Assembly: GCA_964514545.1 (NCBI GenBank)
Contig: CAZETR010000011.1
Location: 26,294-90,293, forward strand
Source: an uncultured Gammaproteobacteria bacterium
Lineage (GTDB): Bacteria; Patescibacteriota; Microgenomatia; CAZETR01
Direction of reading: 5' to 3'
Length of the DNA: 64,000 nt
Shown here: one piece after another, positions 1,743 to 58,145 of the stretch
Layout: every line of letters starts with the position of its first letter
Position numbering within the stretch: the first letter of the stretch is position 1
The notes under the pieces: generated by a model
What the model saw: only the letters and a program-made list of their open reading frames with translations
What the model was told of the DNA's origin: nothing
The model's database searches: none
Program-made: the position numbers and the translations under genes

Positions 1743-2807
1743 TTACCCGCGACCTGACGGTCGGGGTGTCTTCTCGCGTTCGGACTTCGTCCGAAACTGG
1801 TCGCTCATCCCGCGGTCTGACGACCGGGGTATTACGCGTCGCGATAAAATGGTCTGAATTTTCCAGTAAACCGGGCCTATGTTTTTGGCCAATTTATTTT
1901 TAAATCTCATTAGAAGATTCCCGTAGTGATTTTTTACCTTATACGCAGAATCTATGTTCCTGATTGTTAAGATGGCTTCCTTGGTTGCAGTAATGTATGG
2001 GCTATAAATTAATTTTCTAACGTTACTTGTTAGCCTATATCCCGCCGAATAATCGAACTTATTTTCAGAAAGAAGCAGAAATTGGTGAAAATGGTAGCAA
2101 ATTAACCTGTCCCGTTCTATATAAACTGTTTTATCTTTCTCTGTAACACTATATTGTCCGATGTTCCAGGGAGCTGCGTTCACGCCAAGATTTTTTGAAA
2201 TAACAAGTTGTTTATAAAGCGAGGGCCATTCGTTTAGATACATTTGGTCGCCTAACTTATTGTCTTCATATTTCCAGTAGCACCAATCCAGGCATTGCTT
2301 TCGCCATTTTCGAAGACACGCCATCCCCTCTTTGTTCCCTGCAAAGATTTGAAATCCGACGTTAAATCTGCCAATAAGCGAGATTCTGTATTCCTGTCCG
2401 AGTGGATACCTGCTCTCTACTATATATATTGATCCTCCGTTGAGTTCAGCAAACACCGGGTCAATTTTTCCAAAAAGGTACAAGTCGGCGTCCAAATAAA
2501 CCACATACCTGGTCTTGAAATCGTGCCTAAAAATGTAGAGGGGTAATGAGGGCGTACAGGTCCAGTAATATTCCACCCAGTTCCTGTTATTTTTTGCCTT
2601 TAGTAGCTCTTTGTCTTCAAACTCCGCGAGCGGGACAAGCTTGGCGTTTTTGAGCTTCATCTTTGTTAGGATATCGAGGGTATAGTCGTCCATGCAGAGA
2701 ATCCATAACTTTGAATTTGGATGAAACTTTATTAGCGACGTGTAAAGGGCCAGTCCTTTGGGTAAATAACTTTTATCGAAGTAGGTACAAAAGACAAAAT
2801 TATCCAT
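1743..2807 (-). CDS. Putative nucleotide-diphospho-sugar glycosyltransferase (DxD-type: YVVYLDADLYLF); the C-terminal ~35 aa is encoded by a GC-rich hairpin island
   Basis: 354-aa ORF. N-terminal FCTYFDKSYLPKGLALYTSL plus a DAD motif resemble GT8/GT32-like sugar transferases. The basic, low-complexity C-terminus RVIPRSSDRGMSDQFRTKSEREKTPRPSGRG maps exactly onto the GC-rich segment 1745-1845. Confidence 0.5.
   Translation of the reverse strand: MDNFVFCTYFDKSYLPKGLALYTSLIKFHPNSKLWILCMDDYTLDILTKMKLKNAKLVPLAEFEDKELLKAKNNRNWVEYYWTCTPSLPLYIFRHDFKTRYVVYLDADLYLFGKIDPVFAELNGGSIYIVESRYPLGQEYRISLIGRFNVGFQIFAGNKEGMACLRKWRKQCLDWCYWKYEDNKLGDQMYLNEWPSLYKQLVISKNLGVNAAPWNIGQYSVTEKDKTVYIERDRLICYHFHQFLLLSENKFDYSAGYRLTSNVRKLIYSPYITATKEAILTIRNIDSAYKVKNHYGNLLMRFKNKLAKNIGPVYWKIQTILSRRVIPRSSDRGMSDQFRTKSEREKTPRPSGRG
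1745..1845. repeat. GC-rich island of three hairpins at a gene junction
   Basis: Hairpin 1 (1746-1766) is CCCGCGACC-TGAC-GGTCGGGG. A central hairpin (about 1778-1797) has stem TTCGGAC/GTCCGAA with loop TTC. Hairpin 2 (1809-1829) is CCCGCGGTC-TGAC-GACCGGGG; it uses the same loop and outer stem, with compensatory inner-stem changes (ACC/GGT to GTC/GAC). Confidence 0.5.
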
Positions 2808-19671: not shown

Positions 19672-20498
19672 TGTCCTAATAAGCGCAACATTGCACTTTT
19701 CATTATTTCAAGAGGCGCTTCCTGATCAGTGTAAAGTTCAAATTGTTTGACGGCTTGTAAAAGACACATTACCGTACCCGGAATTACGACTTTATTTCTC
19801 TTTCGGGCTAGTTTTATGAGTAGGGTATCAACTGGGCTAATTACAACCTCGTATATTATTTTGAAATTTTCAACTGCTGGTTCATCCACTGGAGTTTCAC
19901 TAAAATCAGGAGTCATGCCGATGCTGGTGGCATTTATTAGCACATCAGCTGGATATTGGTTTCTGTTATTCCAAGGAATAAAAGAATACCCTCTTTTAAG
20001 AGCGAGGTCGTGAGCCTTTTGATAGGTTCGATTGCAGATGCTAACGTCAGTGACACCCAGATGTTTAAGGGCAGCAGTTATTGCAAGGGAGACACCGCCA
20101 GCTCCCAAAACTAATACTTTTTTCCTTTCGATACTCCCTATTCCCTTCAGAGCCTCTGTTGCACCGAAAAAGTCTGTGTTGTAACCAATTAACATTCCGT
20201 TTTCATTGACGATAGTGTTCATGGCTCCAACTTCAATGGCGCTGGTGTCTAGCCTATCCATGTAGTTCAATGCGTCTACCTTAAACGGCATAGACACTCC
20301 GCATCCTCTTATTCCAAGTGCCCTTATACCGTGAATAGCATCTCTCAAATTATTCCCAGTCGGCTCGAGGCCTCGAGCAAGGTAGATCGCGTTTATGCCC
20401 AATGACTCAAACCCGGCATTATGTACAGTTGTCCCGAAATCGCTCGGTCTTTGGGCAAGTGACATGCAAATAATGGTTTCTTTGGTAATGCTAGACAT
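19668..20498 (-). CDS. Shikimate/quinate dehydrogenase (AroE)-family oxidoreductase
   Basis: GAMNTIVNENGMLIGYNTDFFG and VLVLGAGGVSLAI Rossmann segments are typical of AroE. Confidence 0.8.
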   Translation of the reverse strand: MSSITKETIICMSLAQRPSDFGTTVHNAGFESLGINAIYLARGLEPTGNNLRDAIHGIRALGIRGCGVSMPFKVDALNYMDRLDTSAIEVGAMNTIVNENGMLIGYNTDFFGATEALKGIGSIERKKVLVLGAGGVSLAITAALKHLGVTDVSICNRTYQKAHDLALKRGYSFIPWNNRNQYPADVLINATSIGMTPDFSETPVDEPAVENFKIIYEVVISPVDTLLIKLARKRNKVVIPGTVMCLLQAVKQFELYTDQEAPLEIMKSAMLRLLGQ

Positions 20499-21900
20499 AT
20501 AAAGATTTGGTTAGCATTAATTTTCCTAGATGATGGAGAAAAAAATTGAATGGTTCATGGTGTAAGGGAGACATGTTGATAAATATAATTCCTGTTAGTA
20601 ACTGGATCTTCGTTTTATCATATTTTCTGGCTTTGATAAATTCCCGAAATTCATCCCTTGCCTGATGTAAATACGGCGGGGGCTGAAGACTAATTTCTAC
20701 GCTACTGTCAGCCTGGGAAAAAGCAAATTTATTTTTCTTGATCGAACTATAAGGAATAATTAACCCTCCATAGAGTTTGGCCAGATCGTAATAAATATCA
20801 CCGTACTCTACTAAACCGGCAAAACTTTCCCGCCAGTCCAGAAGAATAAACTCAGAACTTCCATTTGGAACAAATAATACGTTGTCAAATTGTAGATCGC
20901 CATGAAACCTGACTGGTGTACCATGACAGAGATAATCCCAATCGACCAATTCGATTAATTCATTTAGGGTAGGTGTTTGTTCTCCGTTAACTTGAGTTTG
21001 AATATCTTTGTGCGAAACTGTATTCCAGTAATTATGTATTCGTTCGTTAGTTTTATTTTTATAGAATTTAACGCAGGCTTGGAAAAAATCTACCGTTTGA
21101 CCATCGGCAAGAAGTGGTTTTTGTGTATCCCAGAGGTGAGATGAGCACCACCACAAAAATCGATTTGTCAGTCCAGGAGATAAACATTCATACATCGTTT
21201 TGCCTGGTACTTTTTTATATGAATAATAATTAGCACCCACTCTGTCCAAGCTTGGAGTTAACCCGTTTAAGAATTTGATTCTTTCAACTCTTGCTTTTAC
21301 GATCTTTTCGTCCTGAAAATATTTGACAACCATGTTTTCCGGAAAGTAAATCGCCTCTTCGGGTTTGGAGAAATCGAACTCTTGATCGTTGTCATTTTTA
21401 AGGTAATTTCTGGCTTGAAGCAACTTATCTGGCTCAGATAAATTTAGATAATCGATAGCGATATCTTCATAATTTGCTTTTACTGTATCTAGTGATTTTT
21501 TTTGTTTTATTGCGTTCCAAAATGACAGATGGTCGAATACGTGAATAATTGGTTCAGATGTCCAATTGCGGTCTTCGTTGAGTGAACTGGTGTTTAGAAA
21601 ATAATTTCCAAAGACAATAAAAAACGGTGTTGTGAGCTGGTTTCTTAGTTTTAGAAGCTCTTGGGAGGTGCCGAAAATATTACCAAGATCGGTAGATGCC
21701 CTAATTACTATGATTTTTTTGTCTGGATGGGCACATAGCAAATAATCCTCCAAAAGTTTCGCATCTTTGCCGGTTATAACAATTATCTCCTCCAGCTGGG
21801 AAAAGATCGATATTTGATGAGAAATTAGAGGAATCCTTCCAAGCGAGGTTAACGATCTGACGGTATTTGAAGGAGAGATGAAGACTGCTTTTTTTGTCAC
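20491..21900 (-). CDS. Fusion: N-terminal MobA-like nucleotidyltransferase domain plus C-terminal APH/choline-kinase-like phosphotransferase
   Basis: C-terminal HGDLQFDNVL catalytic loop and LLDWRE. The N-terminal ~110 aa is a small nucleotidyltransferase-like fold. Architecture resembles LicA/LicC-type kinase plus cytidylyltransferase pairs. Confidence 0.6.
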   Translation of the reverse strand: MTKKAVFISPSNTVRSLTSLGRIPLISHQISIFSQLEEIIVITGKDAKLLEDYLLCAHPDKKIIVIRASTDLGNIFGTSQELLKLRNQLTTPFFIVFGNYFLNTSSLNEDRNWTSEPIIHVFDHLSFWNAIKQKKSLDTVKANYEDIAIDYLNLSEPDKLLQARNYLKNDNDQEFDFSKPEEAIYFPENMVVKYFQDEKIVKARVERIKFLNGLTPSLDRVGANYYSYKKVPGKTMYECLSPGLTNRFLWWCSSHLWDTQKPLLADGQTVDFFQACVKFYKNKTNERIHNYWNTVSHKDIQTQVNGEQTPTLNELIELVDWDYLCHGTPVRFHGDLQFDNVLFVPNGSSEFILLDWRESFAGLVEYGDIYYDLAKLYGGLIIPYSSIKKNKFAFSQADSSVEISLQPPPYLHQARDEFREFIKARKYDKTKIQLLTGIIFINMSPLHHEPFNFFLHHLGKLMLTKSLYV

Positions 21901-21934
21901 AGATTAAGGTGAATTACGGGCAGTCTGAAAAAAC

Positions 21935-22435
21935 TTATATTTTTCGATGTTCCTGTTCGATTCGCCCGTTCGGGCGATCAGTATCGTCCTGAATTCGAAT
22001 AACGTCATCAAGTTGTGGCGAGGAAGCTTCGATTAAAATTAGATCTGTTAAAGCTTCTATCCTGTGTACGCCCGGGGGATTAACGTAGATTATGTGGCCC
22101 GGTCCGAGTTCTTGCGATGACACAATCTCACCAGTATCTTTATCTTCGTAATATAATATTGCTTTCCCGCTAAGTATAAAATTGTGTTCTCGCTTTTCTT
22201 TGTGATATTGGAGGCTTGTCTTTGTACCATTTTTAAGGCCTATTATTTTGAATGCGTACGAACCCTCACTGCCATCGGCAATCCAGATTTCAAAACCCCA
22301 CGGTTTTATTACTAATTTTGCTTGGGCTAAATTAAAAATTTGAAGTTCTTCGGGAAGGTTATCGGGATAAAGTTCATGTCTTCCTGTTCGTGTAAAGTTA
22401 ACAATCTGTTCAAACATTTTAATTTCTGCGCTCAT
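21935..22435 (-). CDS. Cupin-2 protein resembling the type II phosphomannose isomerase (ManC C-terminal) domain
   Basis: KPWGFEIWIA...FKII...GTKTSLQYHKEKREHNFILSGKA parallels RPWG...VKRI...LSLQMHHHRAEHW. Confidence 0.6.
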   Translation of the reverse strand: MSAEIKMFEQIVNFTRTGRHELYPDNLPEELQIFNLAQAKLVIKPWGFEIWIADGSEGSYAFKIIGLKNGTKTSLQYHKEKREHNFILSGKAILYYEDKDTGEIVSSQELGPGHIIYVNPPGVHRIEALTDLILIEASSPQLDDVIRIQDDTDRPNGRIEQEHRKI

Positions 22436-22501
22436 CTTGATTTGATATCTTTCTGGAGTTTTATATACTACTCAGCTACCGAGTGTCAATAATTTCTTGG
22501 C

Positions 22502-23371
22502 TCATTTGCCGAGATTCCTTACGGGAGTTGTGTGTTTGTATATACCACGACTAACTAGTGAGTATCTTGGGACACCTTGGTCATCATCGATGGAGGCAAA
22601 TAATTCTCTTGTTGGGAGCGAAAGGCGGAGTGGTAATATGTCAATCCGGCTGGGATCTTTTTCTAATTCAAACGGGGCCTCGTGCGTGTAGCGGCTAAGT
22701 TTATAGCCTAATAGGCTGTTTAGGAATTGGAATGGACTTTGGGGGTTTACTTTGAACCCTATTCTATTTATAAGAGCTGAGAGCGTGAATATTGGTCGAG
22801 ATAGCGTGGGTGACCATTTGTTTATATCCTTTTTCATCATTGCGATTAGGAACTCCTTTCTAAATATTCCCAAAAGGGAAATTAGGTAATAAGAATGTCC
22901 AGATTTTCTAATAGCAACCCAGTCTTTTATTCTCAGTACAGCGGTATCTGAGTACGTCTGGTGATTAAATTTCACCCCACTGAATGACTTTTTGAATCTG
23001 CCGAAGTGCCACCAAGATATGGGGAGATAATCGCTTCTACTTTTCTGCATTTCTTGGACTAGGTTTTTATATATCGTTTGCGGAGCTAAGTTAAGGTGGT
23101 CCTCGTTCCAAATAAGAATGTAGTTATGTTTGGCTTTTTGGATCATTTCCAAGGCGTTATTAATCCAACCGTTAGCGTCATTTAGAAGCTGGAAGAGTAT
23201 CATTCTGGGACCGAGCTGTTTTTTTAAATATTCTATTGCCTGATCTCTATATGGACCTCGGACATTTATTAACCAGTTGTCACTGACTTTGTCGAATGAC
23301 TTAAATGAATCTTTTAAGTGTTGAAGTTTATCTGGACTGTTTATTTTTAGATTTCCAAGAATTGTTAGCAT
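22502..23371 (-). CDS. Hypothetical protein (possibly GT-A-like)
   Basis: 289-aa soluble ORF immediately downstream of wzt. Contains NEDH; no secure family. Confidence 0.4.
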   Translation of the reverse strand: MLTILGNLKINSPDKLQHLKDSFKSFDKVSDNWLINVRGPYRDQAIEYLKKQLGPRMILFQLLNDANGWINNALEMIQKAKHNYILIWNEDHLNLAPQTIYKNLVQEMQKSRSDYLPISWWHFGRFKKSFSGVKFNHQTYSDTAVLRIKDWVAIRKSGHSYYLISLLGIFRKEFLIAMMKKDINKWSPTLSRPIFTLSALINRIGFKVNPQSPFQFLNSLLGYKLSRYTHEAPFELEKDPSRIDILPLRLSLPTRELFASIDDDQGVPRYSLVSRGIYKHTTPVRNLGK

Positions 23372-23374
23372 TAC

Positions 23375-24607
23375 TTAACTTATTTGATAATTAAGGAGAA
23401 GGCTGCCTTCTGATTGCAGTGGCAATTGTCCGGTTTTGTAGTAATCACCAAACTCTACACTGAAGTTGCCTGCTTTTTGCACCCAGTCCAGGATGTCGCC
23501 ATTTTGGTCTACTGTGATGAGGGTAAATTGATATCTTCCAGGGGTTAATGGAAGATTGCTGATTTTAACCTTTATCACGCCGTCGGATGTACTTATATGT
23601 TGGTTAAAGATTTTATTGCTTATAAAGGCAATTCGGTTTTGCGAAACAAAATCGTCTATGCTAAGGGCAAAATCGATTTTTTTGACAGCCGGGTCAATTA
23701 TATTAAACTCTATCCAGAAGTAGGCGTCCTCCCCGCTTCTAAAGAAATTGACACTCTTTCCTAGGCTGTCTTTGAAAAACACGCGGGTAATTCTTAGCCT
23801 ACCACTTCCCTGTCTGTCTTTTCGATCTTTAAGAGAAATCTTACTTGTTTCGCCCGACATTTTCAGATACTCGGCAATTACTTTGCGTGAATCACCCGAT
23901 TTGACTAATTTTCCTTTGGAGAGGAGCAGTGATCTGGGACAGAGTGATTGAATCGCGCTCATGTTGTGGCTTACAAAAATTACTGTTCTTCCGCTTTTGG
24001 CAACGTCCTGCATCTTGCCGATACTTTTTTTCTGGAACCTGGCATCTCCTACTGCCAATACTTCGTCAACCAGTAGAATTTCCGATTCTAAAAATGCGGC
24101 GATTGAAAATGCTAGGCGAGTATACATGCCTGAGGAATAGTGTTTCACGGGTGTATCCAAAAATTTTTGGATCTCGGAAAAATTCACTATATCGTTGTAT
24201 TTCTTTTTAATTTCCGTTCTACTCATTCCGAGGATTGATCCATTTAGGAAAATATTTTCTTTTCCGGTTAATTCCGGATGAAAACCGGTTCCCACCTCCA
24301 GTAAACTGGCTACTCGCCCGCGAAGATTAATTTGTCCCTGTGTTGGGGGTGTTATCTGGCTGAGTACTTTTAAGAGTGTACTTTTGCCTGCTCCGTTTCC
24401 GCCGATTACTCCTAGCACCTCTCCTTGACCTACGTTGAAAGATACATTTTTCAAGGCCCAAAGGGATATGGCGGGAGCCTTTAGAATTGGCTGAATTTGT
24501 GGAAATTTGATAATTTTAGCAATCGAATCCCGAAGTGCGTGATATGGCTGACGCTCCCCCAGGGCATATTCTTTGGATAAATTTTTGACTTCTATGATTG
24601 GCTCCAT
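23375..24607 (-). CDS. wzt: ABC transporter ATP-binding protein Wzt/TagH-type with C-terminal carbohydrate-binding extension
   Basis: Walker A GGNGAGKST, signature YSSGMYTRLAF, Walker B ILLVDE. A ~160-aa β-rich C-terminal extension resembles Wzt_C. Confidence 0.9.
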   Translation of the reverse strand: MEPIIEVKNLSKEYALGERQPYHALRDSIAKIIKFPQIQPILKAPAISLWALKNVSFNVGQGEVLGVIGGNGAGKSTLLKVLSQITPPTQGQINLRGRVASLLEVGTGFHPELTGKENIFLNGSILGMSRTEIKKKYNDIVNFSEIQKFLDTPVKHYSSGMYTRLAFSIAAFLESEILLVDEVLAVGDARFQKKSIGKMQDVAKSGRTVIFVSHNMSAIQSLCPRSLLLSKGKLVKSGDSRKVIAEYLKMSGETSKISLKDRKDRQGSGRLRITRVFFKDSLGKSVNFFRSGEDAYFWIEFNIIDPAVKKIDFALSIDDFVSQNRIAFISNKIFNQHISTSDGVIKVKISNLPLTPGRYQFTLITVDQNGDILDWVQKAGNFSVEFGDYYKTGQLPLQSEGSLLLNYQIS

Positions 24608-24613
24608 TTTGGG

Positions 24614-25429
24614 TCAGATGATGTCTGCTATATATTTTTCTGTGTGTTTGAAGTAAGCAAGTCCTGAGGCAAAAATTATGACAGCTGAAGTTATGGATGT
24701 AATAATAACCGGCCAATTAAGAATCACTGTCCCGGACAATGCCTCTCTGGATGAATCAATGACTGCGGTCATGGGATTTAGCGCCATAATTAATTTATTT
24801 GTGGAGCTGACAATACTTAAGGGATATATCACGGGAGTGACAAATAGCAGAATTTGAATAAAGAATGGAAGGATATACCTAACGTCGCGAAATCGAACGT
24901 TTAGAGCGCTGGTAAATAAGCTAAGTCCGGCAGAGGTTACGGTGGTTAGCAGAATTGCAAGTGGAATAATCAATATCGCGTAGATAGATGGCGTGAATTT
25001 TAGTACCAGGGAATAGAGTATTAATATAATAAGATTAATGGTGAAGTCTACAAAGCTGACAAGTATGGATGATAGCGGGAGAAAAATCTTGGGAAAATAG
25101 ACTTTTTTGATCAGATTTTCATTTTCAATCAAAGAATTACTGGCATGGCTGAGTACCCCCGAAAAAAAATTCCAGAAAACTAATCCCCCTAGAACAAAAA
25201 GCGAGTATGGCAATTTACCTGAGGAAATGCGAGCTAATTTTCCGAAGAAAACAGTGAATATAATCATGGTTGTAACGGGTTGAAAAACTGTCCATGCAAT
25301 CCCCAGGAAAGTTTGCTTATATCTAACTTTTATATCTCTCCAGGCGAAAATAAAAAATAGTTCCCGAAACCGCCACAGTTCTTTCCAGTCAATATTCCAC
25401 CAATTATTGCGGGGAGTAATTGTAATCAT
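24614..25429 (-). CDS. wzm: ABC-2 type polysaccharide export permease Wzm
   Basis: REL...RDIKVRYKQTFLGIAWTVFQP ABC-2 signature, six predicted TM helices, ATGA-coupled to wzt. Confidence 0.85.
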   Translation of the reverse strand: MITITPRNNWWNIDWKELWRFRELFFIFAWRDIKVRYKQTFLGIAWTVFQPVTTMIIFTVFFGKLARISSGKLPYSLFVLGGLVFWNFFSGVLSHASNSLIENENLIKKVYFPKIFLPLSSILVSFVDFTINLIILILYSLVLKFTPSIYAILIIPLAILLTTVTSAGLSLFTSALNVRFRDVRYILPFFIQILLFVTPVIYPLSIVSSTNKLIMALNPMTAVIDSSREALSGTVILNWPVIITSITSAVIIFASGLAYFKHTEKYIADII

Positions 25430-27471
25430 GTGCCCTGGGGGTTAAGCAAGTAGAGATTTTTAATTATCATGCTTGAGTTGCATATTAACAAATTTCTTAT
25501 TTCGAGGCGATAAAGAGAGTAGTCTTCTTTTCGACTGATGTTTAGGTTAATTGGTTTTCTGCATTTTTCCCTATCGGCAAAATATAGCATTTTGTTTTCT
25601 GCAACGAGATGTTTTAGTTCCTCCATTGGGGTGGCCTCGTAAAAGTCAAGAGGTAGAAGTTCGCAATTTACATTAAATATGTGTGTCCACCCATCTTCGG
25701 CTTTTCTAATTACATCTTCATCAGCCAGGAATAATTCCTTTTTTCCTAAAGTGCCGCACCACTTGTAAATATCCCCGGTCACTCTGTGTCTGTCTTTTAA
25801 CCAATCGTAGATATCTGTTTTGCCTAAGGCGTAGCGGATCTCTTGGGGGGAAATATATGATTTCAGTGAGTAGATTCTTTTAACATTGAAGGCAAAAAAA
25901 TACCCGGCGAATAAAAATAAAACCACTGAATATACTTTGTTTAGTTTCTTTAGACTTCTAGATTTAGAATGAAGCGATAAGGGAATAGTTAGTAGTAGAG
26001 CCAGAACTATCTGCAGAAAGTAAAAGTATCTATCAACATATCCGGTAAAATATTTGATGACAACGAAAGAGAGAGTTGAGCATGAGAGCAAAAACAGAGC
26101 TATTTTGATGGTAGGTAATCGCCGGCTCTTGAGAATTAATAATAATGCAGGAATTAAGAGTAATAGATAGATCGAGTGTCCCTTGGTTATCCCTATTGCC
26201 AGTTGAGGTAAATAAGAAAAGGAAATAGGAATGGTAGCTCCAAAAATGCTATTTGTAACCGAACAGAGTGCCTGATCGCATTTAAATACATTTCCCAGAA
26301 ATGGAAAAATTGGGTTTCCGGTAAGTGCCAAGTTTTTGAGGTACCAAAATCCTCCAAAAAAGACGAGTAGGGAAATAAGCTTAAGAATACTGCTTGGCTT
26401 TAGAATTTTAGAAAACCTCGTCACAAATTTCGCACTTTCTTCTTTGCCTGCGGGTCCTGTCGCGAGTTGTCCTTCCCGCCAGTGCTCGCGGGATTTACCC
26501 GTCTGCGCGCTGTCGGGCGTGCTCGCTGACGCTGTGCCTTGCAGTGCAAGCCTTCCTCTCGCACCACCCGCGTTATTTGTAGACGCAAAACTTATTGCTG
26601 TGTAGGCCAACCAAACCACGAAAATGGTATAGGATGTGGCAAAAGGAACCAGAGATGGATATTTGCTGCCAATAGACATGGCACTAAACACCATACTTGC
26701 GTAAAGGTAATTGGCGGTTTTGGTCAGAATAAACTCAATCATTGTAATCATGCCAAGTACTGTTAGGGCGGCCGTTGAGTAGTCTATATATCCGGAAGTA
26801 GCAACTATTAATAAATCGTGATTTAGAAACAAAAAAATCCAAAGAAACGCAAAAGCTGATAGGTGTGATGTGCGTGATTTAAACCATGCGTAAATGGCGC
26901 TGACGGACGAATAAAAAATCGCAAAATGAAGAAGGCGCGTGGGAGAGTAAGTTTTGGTAAGTGAAAATGGAATCGCAAAAAAAAGGTCTAGTTCTTTCGG
27001 AAGGCTCGGGTGGACGCTTTCATAATCTATTTTCCAGGTTGAGTTGTATGTTTCGTATGGCGACAAGAAGTGATACTGCATCTCGTCCGTGAGATACGGG
27101 GGAAGAGAGCTCTTGACGAGCAAGATCGGAAGAAATATTAGTATGGGCATGATTGATAGCAGATTTGCTTTTATAAAAACCGTGAGTGAGCGCCACTCGC
27201 GGTTTTTTATATAACTTGGTAGAGCAATTATTAGTAACGGAACCAGTGACCAAAGCACATAGTTGGGTCTTATGGGAATAAGAAACCTAAGCCAGAACCA
27301 CTCAAAAACGATTGCCCCTACTCCATAGATCCAGATTGCCGGACGGATAAAACTGGGGGACTTAATGAATTTCTTGTCTATAAATACGCCTAATACGTCA
27401 AAGTATACAAAGAGTCCAAGGGAGATTAACAGAAGGAGGGGCGAGAGGGGCCTGAAGTATTCAGATAACAT
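25426..27471 (-). CDS. Large polytopic membrane protein, PPY-DEM-YH family paralog 1 (putative GT-C-like), with GC-rich in-frame insertion
   Basis: Conserved loop motif SSLPPYLTDEMQYHF, plus LTKTYSPTRLL and SGYIDYST, all shared with 27474..29396 and 33138..34928. Has a soluble C-terminal domain. A ~60-aa low-complexity insert (STNNAGGARGRLALQGTASASTPDSAQTGKSREHW...) is absent from paralog 2. Confidence 0.6.
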   Translation of the reverse strand: MLSEYFRPLSPLLLLISLGLFVYFDVLGVFIDKKFIKSPSFIRPAIWIYGVGAIVFEWFWLRFLIPIRPNYVLWSLVPLLIIALPSYIKNREWRSLTVFIKANLLSIMPILIFLPILLVKSSLPPYLTDEMQYHFLSPYETYNSTWKIDYESVHPSLPKELDLFFAIPFSLTKTYSPTRLLHFAIFYSSVSAIYAWFKSRTSHLSAFAFLWIFLFLNHDLLIVATSGYIDYSTAALTVLGMITMIEFILTKTANYLYASMVFSAMSIGSKYPSLVPFATSYTIFVVWLAYTAISFASTNNAGGARGRLALQGTASASTPDSAQTGKSREHWREGQLATGPAGKEESAKFVTRFSKILKPSSILKLISLLVFFGGFWYLKNLALTGNPIFPFLGNVFKCDQALCSVTNSIFGATIPISFSYLPQLAIGITKGHSIYLLLLIPALLLILKSRRLPTIKIALFLLSCSTLSFVVIKYFTGYVDRYFYFLQIVLALLLTIPLSLHSKSRSLKKLNKVYSVVLFLFAGYFFAFNVKRIYSLKSYISPQEIRYALGKTDIYDWLKDRHRVTGDIYKWCGTLGKKELFLADEDVIRKAEDGWTHIFNVNCELLPLDFYEATPMEELKHLVAENKMLYFADREKCRKPINLNISRKEDYSLYRLEIRNLLICNSSMIIKNLYLLNPQGT
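26445..26572. repeat. GC-rich hairpin-rich island inserted in-frame in a membrane-protein gene
   Basis: About 130 nt of much higher GC than its surroundings. Contains stems CGCGAG/CTCGCG, TCCCGC/GCGGGA and CTTGCA/TGCAAG. Corresponds to the extra loop insert relative to the paralog. Confidence 0.45.
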
Positions 27472-27473
27472 CG

Positions 27474-29396
27474 CTATAGCTTGTACGAAACAGAATTATT
27501 TATTTTTTGAGGATCGAAGAGATAAACATTTTTTACAACCGGGGTGGAGTTACAGACAAGTAAGTTTCTAACCTCTTCCCTAAAAATAACCCTGTTTTCT
27601 TCTCTGGTAATACTAAGGTTGTATCGATCGCGGCAAGCTTTTCTATCTGCCAAATATAGTTTCTTGTTTTGTTTTACCATCAAATTAAATGCTTCAATTG
27701 GCGTGGAACCTGTAAACTCGGTAGCAATCAATTTACAGTTAACGTTAAATATCTGGCCCGGGCTCTCGTCCGGGTCGTGTATGAGCCACTCATCGATCAG
27801 CTCCAGCTCTTTTTCTCCGGGAGTACCGCACCAGGCGAACAAATCGCCGTTGTGTCGATGCCGGTCTTTAAGCCAATCAAAAATGTTTGTTTTTCCAAAA
27901 GCGAAATTTATTTCCTGGGGCGAAACATAAAATCTCGTGGAATAGATTGTCTTTGTCGTTGATGATAGTTTTCCAATGAGGAAAGAAAGAAGAATTATTT
28001 TGTAGCTTATGAGTAAAACTTTTCCAGTGGGACTCTTGAGCTTTATGGCAAATGGTAGAGCTAACACTAGTGTCAAAATTATTTGGAGGAAATAGAAGTA
28101 TCGGTCGACAAAGCCCGAGAATAGTTTAATGATGGGAAATACAATTGTCCCGCTAAGGAGAAGAAATGTCGCAATTCTAGTTAGTTGGGGCTTTCTTCCG
28201 ATAATTAAAATTAGGGCTGCTGGGATCATCAAGGCCACTAAGATCGAGTTTCCCCTAGTGGCGCTAATTACTATTTGAGGGAGATTTGACAAAGTTAAGG
28301 GTGTAGTCCAACTGCCAAAAAAACCTTCGGTGCTATAACAATTATTAAACCTGCACTTAAAAACGTTGGAAAGGAAAGGGTAGAGTGGGTTACCTGTGTA
28401 AATCCAGGTTTTAATATACCAAAACCCGCCGAACAAAACTAGAATAAAAATTATTCTAAGTATCAGAGCTTTGCTGAGAAGTTGTTTGTGTCGGTTTATG
28501 ATGCCCCATCCTGATAGAAGAGTCATCGATACAACAAAAGGGGCCAGGCCGGGGAGTTTGCTGCCAATTGTCAGTCCCCAGAAAGCAAAGCTGGCCATAA
28601 GGACTCCCGGATTAGTACTTAGAAAGTATTCGATCAAGGTAACGATGCCAAGAGCGGTTAGAGAAGCGGTGGAGTAATCTATATAACCGCTAGTTGCCAT
28701 GATGAGCATGTCGTGGTGGAGAAACAAATAAAGAAGTGAAAAAATGGCGGCCGCCCGTAAATTGCTCCGGGACTTGAACCATGCATAAATGGACCAGATT
28801 CCGCTATAAAGAATCATGAAGTGCAGAAGTCTGGCCGGAGCAAATGTTTTGGTGAGTGCAAAAGGAATATTTAAAAAAAGATCCATTTCTTTGGGCAAAT
28901 TTGGATAAAACCTGTCATTGAAAATCCATAATCCGGTTTTAAAGTCCTTGGGTTGGGTCCAGGTAACGTGATTTGCCTCAAAGGGGGACATGAAGTGATA
29001 GGCCATTTCGTCCGTGGTGTATGGAGGCAGAGAGCTTTTGACAAAGAGAATTGGCAGGAATATGGCTAGGGGGATGAGCAGAAAAGCATTACTTTTTATG
29101 AAGACAAATAGTTCAAGCCAGTTTTTGTTTTTTATATAACTCGGGACCGAAATGACGGCCAGTGTGATCAAGGCTAAAAATATCGGTAGGGAGCGTAAGG
29201 GGAAAAAGAAATGAACAAAAAAACTAACAATAACCACCACGCCTAACCCAAAAAACCAGATCACGGGGCGGAGAAATTGGGGGGATTTAATTAGACGCTT
29301 ATCGACGAATATGCCTAACGCGTCGAGAAAAAGGAAAAATATGATTACAAACCCAAGTAGGCCTGGTGTCAGTGGTTTAAAATATTCGGAGAGCAT
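27474..29396 (-). CDS. Large polytopic membrane protein, PPY-DEM-YH family paralog 2 (putative GT-C-like)
   Basis: SSLPPYTTDEMAYHF, LTKTFAPARLL, SGYIDYST. The C-terminal domain is conserved with paralog 1 (SPQEI.FAFGKTNIFDWLKDRHR). Confidence 0.6.
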   Translation of the reverse strand: MLSEYFKPLTPGLLGFVIIFFLFLDALGIFVDKRLIKSPQFLRPVIWFFGLGVVVIVSFFVHFFFPLRSLPIFLALITLAVISVPSYIKNKNWLELFVFIKSNAFLLIPLAIFLPILFVKSSLPPYTTDEMAYHFMSPFEANHVTWTQPKDFKTGLWIFNDRFYPNLPKEMDLFLNIPFALTKTFAPARLLHFMILYSGIWSIYAWFKSRSNLRAAAIFSLLYLFLHHDMLIMATSGYIDYSTASLTALGIVTLIEYFLSTNPGVLMASFAFWGLTIGSKLPGLAPFVVSMTLLSGWGIINRHKQLLSKALILRIIFILVLFGGFWYIKTWIYTGNPLYPFLSNVFKCRFNNCYSTEGFFGSWTTPLTLSNLPQIVISATRGNSILVALMIPAALILIIGRKPQLTRIATFLLLSGTIVFPIIKLFSGFVDRYFYFLQIILTLVLALPFAIKLKSPTGKVLLISYKIILLSFLIGKLSSTTKTIYSTRFYVSPQEINFAFGKTNIFDWLKDRHRHNGDLFAWCGTPGEKELELIDEWLIHDPDESPGQIFNVNCKLIATEFTGSTPIEAFNLMVKQNKKLYLADRKACRDRYNLSITREENRVIFREEVRNLLVCNSTPVVKNVYLFDPQKINNSVSYKL

Positions 29397-29426
29397 CGTG
29401 CCGTCTCATCATACATGGTCACCCTT

Positions 29427-31268
29427 TTAACTTGAAACGACCTGTTTTACTTTCTTGGCGGGGTTTCCGACGGCGATAGTATTTTTGGCAATGTTTTTGG
29501 TAACTACACTTCCCGCACCGATAACAGCGTTATTCCCGATTGTAATCCCCTTTAGAATTATCGCATTTGTTCCAATAAAAACATTCTTTCCAACTAGTAC
29601 TTCCCGGGATTTAATGTTTGCTTTGTTGAAGCGGCGATTCGTGCTATCTATCGGATGAAAATCCGTATCGAGAATTATGCTGTTCGCTCCAACCAAAGTC
29701 CCTTCGCCAATATTAATACTTCTTGCGGCACAGATAACTCCACCCGTAATTCCCACGTTGTCGCCGATAGAAATTGATGCTCCTTTTTCCCACGTGGTTA
29801 AGATTAGCGGGTGATTTACTCCAAGAGGATTTGAATATTTCCAATTGCGCACCTCAACTCCATCCCCTATCCTGATGCTACTATTTTTATGTTTCATAAT
29901 TTTGGGAAATCCATACCATTTGGTGTTTTTGCCTACGCTCACTCCCAATGCTTTGAGATAAACCAGAATTAGTGGATGGTAAATCATGCGTTTTATCTCT
30001 AAAGTAACTTTCCACACAGCACCAAAGCCGGTAATTGTTTCTCTAATTTTAGTTATTTCTATTTTTGCTTCTTCTTTTGAAGGCATGAATTCCTTAAGGA
30101 TGAGGAGAACGACTACAAATTGAATTAAGCCCAAGATAGTTAGCATTGGTTCGTAATTAAGAGTGAGGAATACCGGCCCACCTGTTCCTAATCTATATCT
30201 GACCCAGATACTGTAGAGGTGAATAGCAATTGAGAGAAACCAATATAGTCGGATTCTAGGATTCTCGAAAATATAGAATAGAAGAAGGATCGACGCATTG
30301 TAAAAGTGGTTGGCATGGGCCTGGATGACAATCTGGGGCAATAAGACTGAGGATAAGGTGTAAGTGTCAAGCAAGCTACTTCTTTTTCTTAAAATTGAGA
30401 GTGTAATGAAAATAGTCATTATCGTAAGCGTCAAATACAAAGTTATGTCGGTAATTGTGTGACTAAAGTATGGGGTGTAGATAGGGCCTGATTTATGTAC
30501 AATGCTCTGGATTAACCTAACAATTGGGTGCCAAATATTTACTTCCGATCCCACGAGTACGGGAAATGTATTCTTAACTTGTGTCAGTCTCCATGCAAGA
30601 TAAAATATCGATTGGCCGCTTATTTTGAAATAGATTGAAAAGGCAATGAAAGGGACGATAAAGCCGGAAAAATAATTTAGGGCTGCTTCTATGTGCTGAT
30701 GCACAACTTCCTTAAGTACTAGGAAGATAGCTGCTCCAAGAACTAGTGACTGTGCTTGTGGCTTTGCCATAAATGCCAGTCCCAACATTAGTCCTGAGAA
30801 AAAGGCCTTGTGCTTTACCTTTATGAATTCTTGCCAGATGGCGGCAGAGAGAAGAATAAAAAACGCCATAAGTGAGTCCCAGAAACCTTGCCAGGCTGAG
30901 ATTATAATGAACCATGGGTTAAGCCAATATAATCCAAGCATTTGGAGTTTTTTATTCGGGAAAAGAACTAGCAATAACTTAAGTATTGCTAGTTCAAAAA
31001 TTAAATTGGAAACCTTGAAGGGAAGGAACCAAAGACTGGGAATGGTTTTGGCAATACACGCATCTATTCCGTAGAAAATATAGGTAATGGGAAAATAGAC
31101 TCCGTAAAAAGCATTTGAGAGGCCTTTTTCACAGACGTCTTTGCCCCACGCGTAATAAGCGTCTTTCATATCATGCATCCCCTCTACAAATAACCCGGGA
31201 AACCTTAGGGTCAATCCGACGGCAAAAAGAAGGCCAAGTAAGATTGTTTTGTTGTATCTACGCTTCAT
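29427..31268 (-). CDS. Fusion protein: N-terminal ~400-aa polytopic membrane (GT-C-like) domain plus C-terminal left-handed β-helix (hexapeptide) acetyltransferase domain
   Basis: The C-terminal repeats IRIGDGVEV...ISIGDNVGITGGVIC...INIGEGTLVGANSIIL...VLVGKNVFIGTNAIILKGITIGNNAVIGAGSVV are typical of Mac/LacA-like acetyltransferases. The N-terminus has more than ten hydrophobic helices. Confidence 0.7.
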   Translation of the reverse strand: MKRRYNKTILLGLLFAVGLTLRFPGLFVEGMHDMKDAYYAWGKDVCEKGLSNAFYGVYFPITYIFYGIDACIAKTIPSLWFLPFKVSNLIFELAILKLLLVLFPNKKLQMLGLYWLNPWFIIISAWQGFWDSLMAFFILLSAAIWQEFIKVKHKAFFSGLMLGLAFMAKPQAQSLVLGAAIFLVLKEVVHQHIEAALNYFSGFIVPFIAFSIYFKISGQSIFYLAWRLTQVKNTFPVLVGSEVNIWHPIVRLIQSIVHKSGPIYTPYFSHTITDITLYLTLTIMTIFITLSILRKRSSLLDTYTLSSVLLPQIVIQAHANHFYNASILLLFYIFENPRIRLYWFLSIAIHLYSIWVRYRLGTGGPVFLTLNYEPMLTILGLIQFVVVLLILKEFMPSKEEAKIEITKIRETITGFGAVWKVTLEIKRMIYHPLILVYLKALGVSVGKNTKWYGFPKIMKHKNSSIRIGDGVEVRNWKYSNPLGVNHPLILTTWEKGASISIGDNVGITGGVICAARSINIGEGTLVGANSIILDTDFHPIDSTNRRFNKANIKSREVLVGKNVFIGTNAIILKGITIGNNAVIGAGSVVTKNIAKNTIAVGNPAKKVKQVVSS

Positions 31269-31971
31269 CTGCCCTTAATTTGATTGTGATAATGTCTATA
31301 ATCATCCTTGTTCCAAGTTTGAGAGCCTTTCCAAGTGTCCCAGAGTAAGTGCTCTCTCCGGTGGGTCTCTCTTTGTAGTTAACCGGTATTTGAATTATTG
31401 ATAGATTGTTTTTGCAAGCAAGCACCATCATTTCCAGGCTGAAATCTCCTCCGTTGGCTCTGAATTGTCTTCTAATTTTTTCTAAGGCTTTTTTATGGAT
31501 AATTCGATAGGTGCAACCAACGTCTGAGAGTGAAACTGTGTTGAATAAAAACTGGACTAATTTTGCGACAACGTAGTTTCCCCATTTGAGTAAAAATCCC
31601 ATGTTCGCCCCTTCCCAAATCAATTCCTGCACTGTTCTTGTTCCAATTACGAATTGAAACTCCTTGCTGTAGCTTAGAAGTTTGAATATATCATTAGCTA
31701 CAAACGTACCGTCAGGTTCACAGATTACGATTAGGTCCCCTTTTGCCACCCTTAATCCTTTTTGAATTGCAGCGCCATATCCCTGTTTGACTTCTGGTAC
31801 CACCTTTGCACTTGTCCCTGCGGTCGTTTTTAAAACATCAAACGTGGCGTTATTATCGATAATAATAATTTCATCTATGGCTCTGGTCTTCTCGAAGTCG
31901 AGAATGCTTTTGCGAAGAGTAGCCCGCTCGTTATATGTTGGCATAACGAGTGAAAGTTTAAGTTGTTTCAT
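31258..31971 (-). CDS. GT2 polyprenyl-phosphate sugar synthase-like (Dpm1/ArnC/GtrB-type)
   Basis: LSLVMPTYNERATL... DxD region and a small single-domain GT2 typical of Dol-P/Und-P-hexose synthases. Confidence 0.8.
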   Translation of the reverse strand: MKQLKLSLVMPTYNERATLRKSILDFEKTRAIDEIIIIDNNATFDVLKTTAGTSAKVVPEVKQGYGAAIQKGLRVAKGDLIVICEPDGTFVANDIFKLLSYSKEFQFVIGTRTVQELIWEGANMGFLLKWGNYVVAKLVQFLFNTVSLSDVGCTYRIIHKKALEKIRRQFRANGGDFSLEMMVLACKNNLSIIQIPVNYKERPTGESTYSGTLGKALKLGTRMIIDIITIKLRADEA

Positions 31972-32101
31972 CTTTTATAATTTCAGGGTCATTTTTATTT
32001 TATCAGGCTCTTGCTAAAAAAATCCGTGTGTTCTTTATAAACTTGAGTTTTGTTCTTTACAAGTCTTTAGTTGTCGGTTATGTTGGCTGTGAGTTTGTTT
32101 T
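31972..32101. promoter_or_regulatory. Divergent intergenic/promoter region
   Basis: 130-nt AT-rich gap between a head-to-head minus-strand run and the plus-strand epimerase gene. Confidence 0.3.
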
Positions 32102-33106
32102 ATGAGTAGAAAAAGAACTAGTCTGGTAACGGGTGGGGCTGGGTTTATAGGGTCTCATGTGGCGAGTTATTTATTGAAAATGGGCCAGAGGGTGGTTATA
32201 CTCGATGATTTAAGTGGGGGAAGTATTTCGAATATCCCCAAAGGGGCAGTGTTCGTTAACGGGTCTATAAACGACTCCGGAGTCGTCGAGCCGATTTTTG
32301 ATATGTGTAGATTTGATTATGTTTATCATTTAGCTGCGTATGCGGCTGAGGGACTTAGTCACTTTGTTCGAAAATTCAATTATGAAAACAATTTAATGGG
32401 TTCTATTAATCTTATAAACCAGTCGATTAAATTTGAAGTCAAACATTTTGTTTTTACTTCAAGTATTGCAGTCTATGGAACTAATCAGTTGCCCATGATC
32501 GAAACTCTTATTCCAAATCCAGAGGATCCCTATGGAATAGCAAAATTGGCGGTCGAGAAAGATCTTGAGTCAGCTCATAAAATGTTTGGTCTCACTTATA
32601 CAGTTTTCCGACCCCACAATGTATTCGGGGAGAGACAAAATTTGGGAGATCCTTATCGGAACGTGATAGGGATATTTATTAATAAATGTTTAAAGGGAGA
32701 GCCGATGCAAATATTTGGCGATGGAAGACAAACAAGGGCGTTTTCGTATATCGATGATGTGGCGCCATATATAGCAAAGAGTGCCGAAGTAAAAGAAGCT
32801 TGTAATGAGATTATTAATATAGGGGCAGATCATCCTTATTCCGTGAAGGCTATTGCCGGGATTGTGGCTGAATTAATGGGATCTAAAACGAAGATAAGAT
32901 TTGTGAAAGGCCGCCAGGAGACAAAACATGCTTATTCTGATCATGCAAAGGGGAAGAGAATTTTTAACATTACAAAGACGACAGACTTTAGATCTGGGCT
33001 GTCAAGAATGATCGACTGGGCGAGGCAAAAAGATCAACTATTTACTTCGAAAGTACCAGAAATCGAGGTTGTGAAGAATTTGCCGACTGCATGGAGAGTG
33101 AAATGA
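32102..33106 (+). CDS. NAD-dependent epimerase/dehydratase (extended SDR)
   Basis: TGGAGFIGSHV Rossmann motif, YxxxK region YHLAAYAAEG...; family-level call only. Confidence 0.85.
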   Translation: MSRKRTSLVTGGAGFIGSHVASYLLKMGQRVVILDDLSGGSISNIPKGAVFVNGSINDSGVVEPIFDMCRFDYVYHLAAYAAEGLSHFVRKFNYENNLMGSINLINQSIKFEVKHFVFTSSIAVYGTNQLPMIETLIPNPEDPYGIAKLAVEKDLESAHKMFGLTYTVFRPHNVFGERQNLGDPYRNVIGIFINKCLKGEPMQIFGDGRQTRAFSYIDDVAPYIAKSAEVKEACNEIINIGADHPYSVKAIAGIVAELMGSKTKIRFVKGRQETKHAYSDHAKGKRIFNITKTTDFRSGLSRMIDWARQKDQLFTSKVPEIEVVKNLPTAWRVK

Positions 33107-33137
33107 CTGAGAACCCAAGATGTGAATTTTATGATAG

Positions 33138-34928
33138 CTATTTGCTAAAACCGGTAAATTCATAGAGGTATGGTTTTATCTTTCTTGATTTGCAAATGAC
33201 ATCGTTGTTGTTTTTTCTAAAATAATACTTGCCGTCAGAGTCGTCTACTGGCAAATTCTTGTCGCATTCAGAAAGTGAGATTGCGTAAAGTGGTTTAGCC
33301 TTTGAATAAGTTGAGAGCTCATCGCGACTGTGGGAGCAATTGGTCATAAAGATGGAAAATAATGCATCGTAGTTCCCCCAAATTAGCTCCGGGTCTGTAA
33401 CTCTAATTTGAGTGTCAGGATTTACTTCTTCGCACCATTTTATGACTCCTCCCAGTCTGGGAAAGAAAGCACGAGTCCAATCGTAAATATTTATCATGCC
33501 TTTGGCGTAGGCTAGCTCTCTGGGATTTTGCGTATAGGCTAATTTCACTGTATTTAGAGTGTTTATGGAATTGCGATAAATAAATGAGGCCGAGTAAACC
33601 ATAAGTAATAGGGCGAGTGCCTTGGGGAAAAAATGGATTTTTGACAGATTCCAAGACGCGGCCACAAAAAGAATAGTCATCAGTTGCCAATGAATAAAGT
33701 ATCTGGGTTCAAAAGCCGTAAATTTTGATGAGATTGTCCAGTCAAGAGCTAAAATAGACGTTAATAAGAGCGTGAATTTAACTGATTTCCTGTTCCGGTG
33801 AATGAGGAGAAGAATTAGGGAAATTAATAATAATTTTTCGATACTTAGAAATTGATTGAAAAGTAAAGACTTTATCTTGCTTAGATTGCTAAGGGTAATA
33901 GGAGTGGTCCAGCTGCCAAAAATGTCTGTTTTCTTAGGACATGTTTTACAGGCAAAAATTAATGGATAAACCGGATTCTTGTACAGAACCGCGTTTTTAA
34001 TATACCAGTATCCTCCAAACAGAGAAAAAATTACTAAACATGATATTAACGTGTTTCTTCTAACCGCTTTAAAATCTACAAGTAAACTTATTAGAAAAAT
34101 TGAGATTGCGCTGGAAAGAACTGAGTACTTCATGCCTACCGCCAAGGCGATAAAGCCGACTCTTCCTGCTAGTGAATTTTTGTAAAAAAAGGTGAGCAGG
34201 GCCAAAATTATAAATGCAGCGGCTGCCACGTCGACGTAACCGGATGTACTTAAAGTGAGAATGTCGGGACTGAAAAATAGGATGCCGATGTACCCTCCTG
34301 CTGCCGAGAGAGTTCCAATGTTCTCCTTTAAACAGAAGTAAACTGTAGCTGCCGCAGTTAAAAAGATCAGGAATTGCAGCAGCCTGGCCGATGCGTACGT
34401 CTTGGTTAATACAAATAGGCCCAAGGCCGCGGTTTCAAGTGATCTGGGCATACTTGAGTAGAGTCCGCCTGACAGATTCCACGATTTTTCAAAAGTAATA
34501 GTTGATGGGGACTGCCAGTGATAGGCCATTTCATCCCACATGTACGGTGGAAGAGAGAGCTTTGTAAATATTGGCTTTGCGATGATTACCAAGGGAAGCA
34601 GTAGCACTACGACATCAGGCAATATTTGTTTGAATGAAATATTAAGTTTAATCCTCGAGATTTTGGTTTTATAAAAGCAGAAGAGAAAAATCGGTAAATA
34701 TAAATCTAAAACCGTGGTCGGCTTTAGGGGATAAAAAAGGTGACCTACGTAAACCGCGAGTGTCCAAATAGCTAGGCCAAAGGTCCACCTGGTGAGCAAA
34801 AGAGCCGAGGGAAGTTTGATAAATTTCTTATCGATCCAGGTACCGACAACAAACCAGGAGAGAAAAAGTGCAAAATAAACTAAGAGGTTAAAGAAATTTA
34901 GAGGTTGAAAATAATCGAGGAGTGTCAT
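33138..34928 (-). CDS. Large polytopic membrane protein, PPY-DEM-YH family paralog 3 (putative GT-C-like)
   Basis: LSLPPYMWDEMAYHW, LTKTYASARLL, SGYVDV. Shorter C-terminal domain than paralogs 1 and 2. Confidence 0.6.
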   Translation of the reverse strand: MTLLDYFQPLNFFNLLVYFALFLSWFVVGTWIDKKFIKLPSALLLTRWTFGLAIWTLAVYVGHLFYPLKPTTVLDLYLPIFLFCFYKTKISRIKLNISFKQILPDVVVLLLPLVIIAKPIFTKLSLPPYMWDEMAYHWQSPSTITFEKSWNLSGGLYSSMPRSLETAALGLFVLTKTYASARLLQFLIFLTAAATVYFCLKENIGTLSAAGGYIGILFFSPDILTLSTSGYVDVAAAAFIILALLTFFYKNSLAGRVGFIALAVGMKYSVLSSAISIFLISLLVDFKAVRRNTLISCLVIFSLFGGYWYIKNAVLYKNPVYPLIFACKTCPKKTDIFGSWTTPITLSNLSKIKSLLFNQFLSIEKLLLISLILLLIHRNRKSVKFTLLLTSILALDWTISSKFTAFEPRYFIHWQLMTILFVAASWNLSKIHFFPKALALLLMVYSASFIYRNSINTLNTVKLAYTQNPRELAYAKGMINIYDWTRAFFPRLGGVIKWCEEVNPDTQIRVTDPELIWGNYDALFSIFMTNCSHSRDELSTYSKAKPLYAISLSECDKNLPVDDSDGKYYFRKNNNDVICKSRKIKPYLYEFTGFSK

Positions 34929-35695
34929 GGGGAGTTTGTAATGATAAGATGAGATGGAATAATTCCAAGAGTCATATAAATTATTACCCTGAATTTATTT
35001 CCTGGAAGCATTTTTACAATATCTTTTACGTACAACGGATTTAGGTTTGAATTTGAGGACCAGAATGACTTGCCTGTAAATTTACATAGAAACCGAAAAA
35101 TTTTGAGAGGAAGCCAGTGGAGAAAGAAAAATCCTGTATGTGGCTCATAAATACAACCTCTGTAAGGAGTCGTGATAAATATTTTTTTCCCAACTCGAGC
35201 TATTTCTCTTATAAATTTTGCTTGTTTGGTAAAGTTTCCTACATGCTCCAATGTTGCCCATGCTGTGGCGATATCAAATTGATTTGATTTAAACGGTAAC
35301 CTTACATTAGGTTCTATTCTAATAATTTTAATCTTCGGATATTTTTTCTTTATTTCTGAATAGTCTTCGACCGCAAGGGCCGTAATTTGTGATGGGTATG
35401 GATAGTGTTTCTCAAAATAATTTGCATCTACCATGTCCTCAGTTGGTGAGATCCCTATGTCTATAACGGTTTCGTCTGGTTTCGGTTTGTACTCACGAAG
35501 TAAGAGATTTAGCTGCTCCTTTCTGACTCGCAGAGACAAGTGACTCAAGAATCTCTTCGTGATGCCGACTTTGTTTTCCGGATTTGTAGTCCAAGTGGAA
35601 GCATTGTACTGACTCATCAAAGTTAACCTTTGTACGTTTTGAATAACTTGCTTTCCTTCAGAATGAAGCTGATATCTCTTAGTCCATCTCTCCAT
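34925..35695 (-). CDS. Class I SAM-dependent methyltransferase
   Basis: VIDIGISPTE and FDIATAWATLEHV (Methyltransf_11-like). An alternative start at 35617 would remove the 72-nt overlap. Confidence 0.6.
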   Translation of the reverse strand: MERWTKRYQLHSEGKQVIQNVQRLTLMSQYNASTWTTNPENKVGITKRFLSHLSLRVRKEQLNLLLREYKPKPDETVIDIGISPTEDMVDANYFEKHYPYPSQITALAVEDYSEIKKKYPKIKIIRIEPNVRLPFKSNQFDIATAWATLEHVGNFTKQAKFIREIARVGKKIFITTPYRGCIYEPHTGFFFLHWLPLKIFRFLCKFTGKSFWSSNSNLNPLYVKDIVKMLPGNKFRVIIYMTLGIIPSHLIITNSP

Positions 35696-36348: not shown

Positions 36349-36385
36349 AGTTTAAGATTATTACCTTTTATTTGCTGTGTGGCAA

Positions 36386-56450: not shown

Positions 56451-56453
56451 GAT

Positions 56454-58139: not shown

Positions 58140-58145
58140 GGCGAG

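Follow-up and report, generated by a model that had tools for sequence, protein, structure and literature searches.

What is a short GC-rich segment of coding DNA doing in the middle of an otherwise AT-rich membrane protein gene? The question is raised by a 64,000-nucleotide stretch of contig CAZETR010000011.1 (assembly GCA_964514545.1), from an uncultured bacterium of the Microgenomates group within the candidate phyla radiation (CPR). This whole 64-kb stretch is called the window below. A first-pass annotation, made from the letters alone, had noticed about 130 nucleotides (nt) of strikingly higher GC content than the AT-rich surroundings, read them as a foreign or miniature element tolerated in a loop, and offered an RNA structure overlapping the coding sequence as the alternative. 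Our analysis indicates that positions 26449-26589 are probably one copy of a GC-rich repeat of about 141 nt, which lies in several unrelated genes of one Microgenomates-group genome and is tolerated there as a hydrophilic loop or tail. To date the element is known from a single uncultured CPR bacterium, of the Microgenomates group.

The foreign composition of the segment is directly observed. Positions 26445-26572 exhibit a GC content of 68.0%, against a mean of 40.9% for the window, and form the first-ranking composition outlier of the 64 kb (z = 5.44 over all 128-nt windows; z = 3.56 for the runner-up). The contrast with the surroundings noticed earlier is thus borne out by the sliding GC profile. 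At the first, second and third codon positions the GC fraction is 0.66, 0.71 and 0.57 in this stretch, versus 0.41, 0.35 and 0.41 in the remainder of the host gene. As all three codon positions are raised, the GC excess is not an effect of codon usage. The stretch is in frame within the minus-strand open reading frame (ORF) at 25426..27471, which is 681 amino acids (aa) long, and the peptide from the GC-rich part reads TNNAGGARGRLALQGTASASTPDSAQTGKSREHWREGQLATGPA. The segment had been credited with about 60 aa. The 128-nt stretch itself is real, but it encodes about 43 aa; the gap of 57-60 aa that appears against homologs takes in AT-rich flanks as well (AIS upstream and GKEESAKFVT downstream). 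Four of the six reading frames are open across the element core, and the composition-based probability of one 44-codon frame being open is about 0.38, so that the lack of stop codons in the element is unremarkable per se.

Copies of the segment in unrelated proteins

Four copies of the segment are known, one in the window protein (P0001), two in the protein P0019 and one in the protein P0023. P0019, identified by protein search, is a 483-aa Wzy_C/O-antigen-ligase-like protein, unrelated to the window host. Its C-terminal copy is identical to the window protein at 48 of 62 residues over the element and its flank, and its second, more diverged copy lies in the loop after the Wzy_C domain. Both are missing from the six closest P0019 homologs (394-415 aa). 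When 1.84 billion representative proteins were searched exhaustively with HMMER, the sole further credible carrier was P0023, the ribosomal protein uL4 (Pfam Ribosomal_L4, aa 18-205, E-value = 4e-58), in which the element occupies aa 236-287 within a C-terminal extension. Two other HMMER matches, P0024 and P0025, were rejected as copies, being long repetitive proteins with low-complexity matches. The earlier annotation had proposed a search for other genomic copies; other copies do exist, in P0019 (twice) and in uL4.

The uL4 gene is not encoded inside the window. The NCBI contig recorded for P0023 has a length of 220,061 nt, and the same figure is given for the contig of the window-encoded proteins P0001, P0003 and P0018. 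The uL4 copy therefore lies on the contig of the window, outside the window, and that contig carries at least two copies.

The three further copies are diverged, at 71-86% peptide identity, and two blocks, ASTPDSA and EHWREGQLATGP, are identical in all four. The peptide alignment gives the four-copy consensus [FL]A[PS][TS]N[NS][AT]GG..GR..ASTPDSA..EHWREGQLATGP[AV]. In all three kinds of host (GT-C-like, Wzy_C and uL4 proteins) the conserved host motifs resume in frame after the insert. The sites are a loop of a GT-C-like protein, the loop after a Wzy_C domain, a C-terminus and the tail of a cytoplasmic ribosomal protein, which have only their loop or tail nature in common.

Two identical blocks, and a single reading frame in all known copies, are what might be expected of a functional peptide module (a short linear motif, a binding tag or a flexible linker) gained for its usefulness and conserved at the amino acid level. 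We regard this explanation as very unlikely. The host proteins and the positions within them have nothing in common, no Pfam family matches the element peptide, the AlphaFold model is not confident over the segment, and among the 1.84 billion representatives the peptide is not known beyond this lineage. The shared frame is an ascertainment effect of protein-based searching. Moreover, the GC excess is not confined to codon position 3 but extends to positions 1 and 2, which points to foreign DNA rather than to adapted coding sequence.

Searches at the DNA level and with looser patterns returned no additional member. The window holds no second copy of the element. A degenerate DNA pattern for EHWREGQLAT, which does match the window, had no match in collections of genomes, metagenomes and viral contigs, and looser motif scans derived from the four-copy alignment found no relatives in public sequence collections. 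A word-indexed protein search with a 56-aa peptide gave no candidates even though P0001 and P0019 carry the peptide, so its silence is uninformative. A 17-nt match to the 5' end of the element at 31183-31199 was treated as a coincidence, since it is conserved host coding sequence (RFPGLFVEG versus FRTPGMFVEG in the ortholog). The uL4 variant IVRYAAAA was considered as a frameshifted reading of the window copy and rejected, as no frame yields IVRYAAAA.

The junction downstream of the internal P0019 copy (aa 350-361) reads VFNNAGNGADSS. All six aligned homologs exhibit xxSHAGAGADSS there, with an invariant histidine, so that the insertion coincides with the loss of a conserved residue. The FNNAG of this junction resembles the element start F..TNNAGG, which hints at microhomology recombination or at a partial second copy.

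Extent of the repeat unit and its absence from relatives

The unit measures about 141 nt, or 47 codons. Its principal parts are the following.

26449..26589, minus strand: repeat unit common to the four known copies, 47 codons (FASTNNAGGARGRLALQGTASASTPDSAQTGKSREHWREGQLATGPA), aa 295-341 of the host protein
26449..26572, minus strand: GC-rich body of the unit, 68% GC, with 8% T on the sense strand
26419..26448, minus strand: copy-specific AT-rich linker GKEESAKFVT, lying in the gap versus homologs and missing from the other copies; it holds 26419-26433, one arm of a rejected terminal inverted repeat (TIR) candidate discussed below

The 3' boundary of the unit was obtained independently of the peptides. 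The contig L041, a Logan contig of sequencing run ERR3478687, is 100% identical to the window from 26478 down to 20273. It starts inside the element at 26478, exactly 30 nt before 26449, the last position common to the copies (where the GPA codons end). Logan assembles its contigs from a de Bruijn graph with k = 31, all 31-mers of which are distinct (PMC12424806). At a repeat boundary, a branch in such a graph gives a contig starting k-1 = 30 nt ahead of the divergence, as L041 does, which fixes 26449 as the 3' end of the unit. The start of L041 thus confirms the 3' junction, which a second assembler reproduces, and also supports the multi-copy status of the element at the DNA level. The 5' end near 26589 is set by the peptides alone, to about 3 nt.

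The abrupt jump in composition and the break of the de Bruijn assembly within the segment could also be taken for signs of an assembly chimera, with contaminating GC-rich reads fused into an AT-rich gene. This is scarcely credible here: the frame is kept through both junctions, the independent assembler gives the 3' junction base for base, and three more copies, at the peptide identities given above, are present in other proteins.

The host gene and its two paralogs in the window are the following.

25426..27471, minus strand: host gene, 681-aa polytopic membrane protein with weak matches to the fold of GT-C glycosyltransferases
27474..29396, minus strand: adjacent paralog, 640 aa, element-free, used as the "empty" reference
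33138..34928, minus strand: third paralog (P0018), 596 aa, element-free

Pairwise alignment with the adjacent paralog leaves a gap of 57 aa at the segment, in agreement with the absence that had been claimed for this position. The segment is missing in 12 other members of the host family, including both other window paralogs and the closest ortholog, P0002 (61% identity). The family is found in Microgenomates-group CPR bacteria (Amesbacteria, Woesebacteria, Gottesmanbacteria, Pacebacteria and Shapirobacteria). A syntenic ortholog locus from a groundwater metagenome (L001-L004) shares with the window the order hexapeptide-repeat protein, paralog 2, paralog 1, ABC-2 permease and Wzt-type ATPase, and its paralog 1, of 626 aa, lacks the insert. 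This ortholog is too diverged at the insert site to provide an empty site at base resolution. With the relatives examined in this way (the 12 family members and the syntenic locus), the segment is clearly not a domain carried universally by the orthologs. Across about 640 kb of related Microgenomates loci the element does not recur, and GC outliers do not exceed z = 4.05.

The AlphaFold model of the host, built on an alignment of 13 sequences, has an overall predicted local distance difference test score (pLDDT) of 81.5 and a predicted template modelling score (pTM) of 0.83, and falls below a pLDDT of 50 at aa 305-342. The low-pLDDT insert lies between two confident helices (271-310 and 340-356). 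The loop that bears it has flanks rich in lysine and arginine in all aligned homologs, which under the positive-inside rule suggests a cytoplasmic loop. Fold matches to ALG12, ALG9, STT3 and ArnT (E-values of 1e-3 to 1e-2) are weak but consistent, all being GT-C glycosyltransferases.

Folding of the unit

The first-pass annotation had described several perfect short inverted repeats in the segment. They are perfect at a length of only 6 nt; the longer ones, of 9-13 nt, are 85-89% complementary. The structured parts are these (no strand is assigned to them).

26474..26493: hairpin TCCCGC-N8-GCGGGA, six perfect pairs on the sense strand, over the codons S-R-E-H-W-R-E
26498..26517: imperfect 20-nt palindrome CCCGTCTGCGCGCTGTCGGG, from the inverted-repeat scan and folding
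26538..26550: perfect 6-bp hairpin CTTGCA-C-TGCAAG, over the codons L-A-L-Q-G, in a segment that differs in the uL4 copy
26450..26455: closing-stem arm (GCGGGT/ACCCGC), joining both ends of the GC-rich body in the minimum free energy (MFE) structures
26566..26571: partner arm of the closing stem, pairing with 26450-26455 in the MFE structures

The predicted fold consists of a closing stem and three internal hairpins. Compared with dinucleotide shuffles its z-score is -2.6 for the sense strand, -2.2 for the antisense strand and -2.1 for DNA, and between 1 and 6 of 200 shuffles fold as well.

Such a fold raises the possibility that the segment is a structured RNA or single-stranded DNA signal within the coding sequence (an mRNA stabiliser, a processing site, an attenuator or a small RNA), the peptide being a by-product. 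In its favour are the GC-rich island set in a genome that is otherwise AT-rich, the three hairpins enclosed by the closing stem (26450-26455 with 26566-26571) and the negative z-scores. We nevertheless consider it unlikely. The z-scores are modest given a GC content of 68%. A scan of the window with Rfam 15 gave no match at the gathering threshold, and none in the element at a permissive one, at which two chance-level matches (E-values of 2.5 and 5) fell beside the element, not inside it. No transfer RNA (tRNA) or transfer-messenger RNA was detected, and signals resembling terminators or promoters were not above shuffle expectation. The copies are inconsistently placed relative to the starts and ends of their genes. 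The peptide differences between copies also bear on this point. Three of them, AR to VS, LALQGTAS to IVRYAAAA and QTGKSR to HPEPVDG, fall on predicted stems (the hairpins at 26538-26550 and 26474-26493), and no compensating change of the partner arm is visible. These differences, read at the peptide level, argue against one strictly conserved RNA structure. The RNA alternative of the earlier annotation thus retains a modest folding signal, but finds neither a known family nor constancy in two of its hairpins.

Known elements, possible origin and the surrounding locus

Of the reading of the segment as a foreign or miniature element tolerated in a loop, the copies in unrelated proteins and the pLDDT below 50 between helices uphold the greater part; the hallmarks of a MITE, or miniature inverted-repeat transposable element, namely TIRs and a target site duplication (TSD), are not supported. 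The best TIR candidate is a 15-nt imperfect inverted repeat pairing 26419-26433 with 26570-26585 (CGTC(T)ACAAAT). Candidates at least as good turn up in 13% of the shuffled sequences and in 14% of the genomic controls, and as the unit ends at 26449 on its 3' side, the arm at 26419-26433 falls outside the repeat. The only TSD candidate, a 5-nt AAAAC repeat, is matched or beaten in 42% of shuffles. An intein or self-splicing intron was rejected as well: the 47 aa lie below known mini-intein sizes and have no Pfam match, and there is no Rfam intron match. A sortase-type LAxTG signal at QLATGP was discarded for its wrong spacing and for want of a membrane anchor after the motif.

The closest parallel is with the Rickettsia palindromic elements (RPEs) of Ogata et al. 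(2000 and 2002), as these are summarised in PMC10969869 and PMC3733652. As in those summaries, our element measures in the range of 100-150 nt, lies in frame in unrelated functional genes, exhibits a conserved peptide, is absent from orthologs, and sits where the protein tolerates an extra segment; a dedicated transposase is known for neither. Like a member of that class, it recurs within one genome, occupies unrelated ORFs in frame, and is absent at the site from orthologs and paralogs. It differs from RPEs, as summarised there, in its CPR/Microgenomates host rather than an alpha-proteobacterium, in being far GC-richer than its genome, in having no full palindrome, and in its four known copies. 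The link with RPEs is one of functional analogy only.

Repetitive extragenic palindromic (REP) sequences and the bacterial interspersed mosaic elements (BIMEs) composed of them resemble the unit in their GC-rich hairpins and in their location inside ORFs, where GTAG- or CGTC-tagged REP clusters encode 43-82 aa (PMC3733652). The unit departs from this type in being a 141-nt composite rather than a 20-40-nt hairpin, of the kind mostly arranged as head-to-head dimers, and in having no GTAG or CGTC tag in a defined position (in the element region, CGTC occurs only in the rejected flank), and no gene for a REP-associated tyrosine transposase (RAYT) was seen. Bacterial MITEs such as Correia/NEMIS, RUP and Nezha are likewise small, non-autonomous-looking and multi-copy, and can make in-frame fusions, but their defining TIRs and TSDs (PMC10969869) are unsupported here. 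Our literature search found no reports of in-frame protein-coding repeats in CPR/Patescibacteria. Among organellar elements, the GC clusters and byp elements of yeast mitochondria are mobile GC-rich hairpins in an AT-rich genome and can land in coding sequence. They are much shorter, and byps are skipped by the ribosome; unlike byps, the present element is open and in frame, so that no bypass is needed.

A simple scheme would account for these observations. The repeat would be copied at the DNA level into unrelated protein-coding genes, and the copies that survive would be those that keep the frame, are free of stops and encode a hydrophilic peptide rich in alanine, glycine, arginine, serine and threonine. 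Such copies would persist in loops or terminal tails, their translation product being a disordered segment that may do little harm there. The low T content of the unit is consistent with a filter for hydrophilic peptides. From the continuity of the frame, the segment is presumably translated and not removed. It is probably neutral or selfish rather than useful, and it would have spread via some form of transposition or recombination. The stem closing the two ends and the internal GC hairpins suggest, by analogy with REP/RAYT systems or RPEs, that a folded single strand may be what is recognised.

Several points weigh against a mobile repeat of this kind. Four copies are known, all found through protein similarity and hence in one frame and orientation. 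Of the copies, those in P0001 and P0023 are placed in the genome of the window; those in P0019 are not so placed. The sense strand is strongly asymmetric in A and T (27% A, 8% T), so that the unit is no true palindrome. No significant TIR or TSD was found at the element in comparison with shuffles and genomic controls, and no transposase domain was seen among the ORFs scanned in the 64-kb window. Finally, the translation of the segment is deduced from the frame rather than observed.

A bolder version, which we put forward tentatively and think rather unlikely, takes the unit as the first-seen member of a CPR class of mobile elements adapted to intragenic life, spread by some enzyme through a folded single-stranded intermediate and actively remodelling proteins. 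A T-poor, stop-free coding orientation, an end-to-end stem over hairpins and the lack of TIR and TSD would all fit the idea of such a gene-adapted class. If this version were true, the tail of uL4 and cell-envelope glycan enzymes would be remodelled in organisms known for reduced genomes.

Rickettsia and a scatter of intragenic REPs so far provide the best-known in-frame protein-coding repeats. If the tolerated repeat proposed here holds genome-wide, small streamlined CPR genomes would also tolerate selfish DNA within essential genes such as uL4, and the element would offer a clean natural case of new protein segments arising from DNA of non-coding type. Elements of this sort break short-read assemblies within genes, as the Logan contig illustrates, and inflate apparent protein novelty in catalogues of metagenome-assembled genomes.

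The host gene belongs to a polysaccharide gene cluster, beside genes for a Wzm/Wzt ABC transporter. The 64-kb window is almost wholly given to glycan biosynthesis, with many GT2/GT4-like genes, nucleotide-sugar enzymes, the Wzm/Wzt ABC transporter and the three GT-C-like paralogs, and it yielded neither a tRNA nor an Rfam match. Two Logan contigs of run ERR3478687, L041 and a second one (L040), match the window at 100% identity within 20273-37487, which indicates that this run contains the same strain. The end of L040 falls at 31177, within the hexapeptide-repeat gene and close to the 17-nt match at 31183-31199 described above. At 53134-61483 (and 61630-63183) lie five tandem minus-strand ORFs of 538-574 aa, mutually paralogous at 27-31% identity, with a sixth, distant relative on the opposite strand; no Pfam or NCBIfam match was obtained for the two members scanned.

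The second-highest GC outlier of the window (1747-1874) includes the segment 1746-1830, at the 3' end of the ORF 1743..2807, the tail of which ends ...RRVIPRSSDRGMSDQFRTKSEREKTPRPSGRG*. This segment and the main element both contain CGGGTAAAT, but kinship between them was rejected, as their local alignment score is matched or beaten by 232 of 1000 shuffles. Within 1746-1830 a 22-nt hairpin unit occurs twice in direct orientation, as CCCGCGACCTGACGGTCGGGGT and as CCCGCGGTCTGACGACCGGGGT, and the four differences between the two amount to two compensatory pair swaps in the stem. The RNA fold of this segment has a z-score of -3.5, with none of 200 shuffles folding as well, and the segment has the appearance of a pair of REP-like hairpins incorporated into a coding region.

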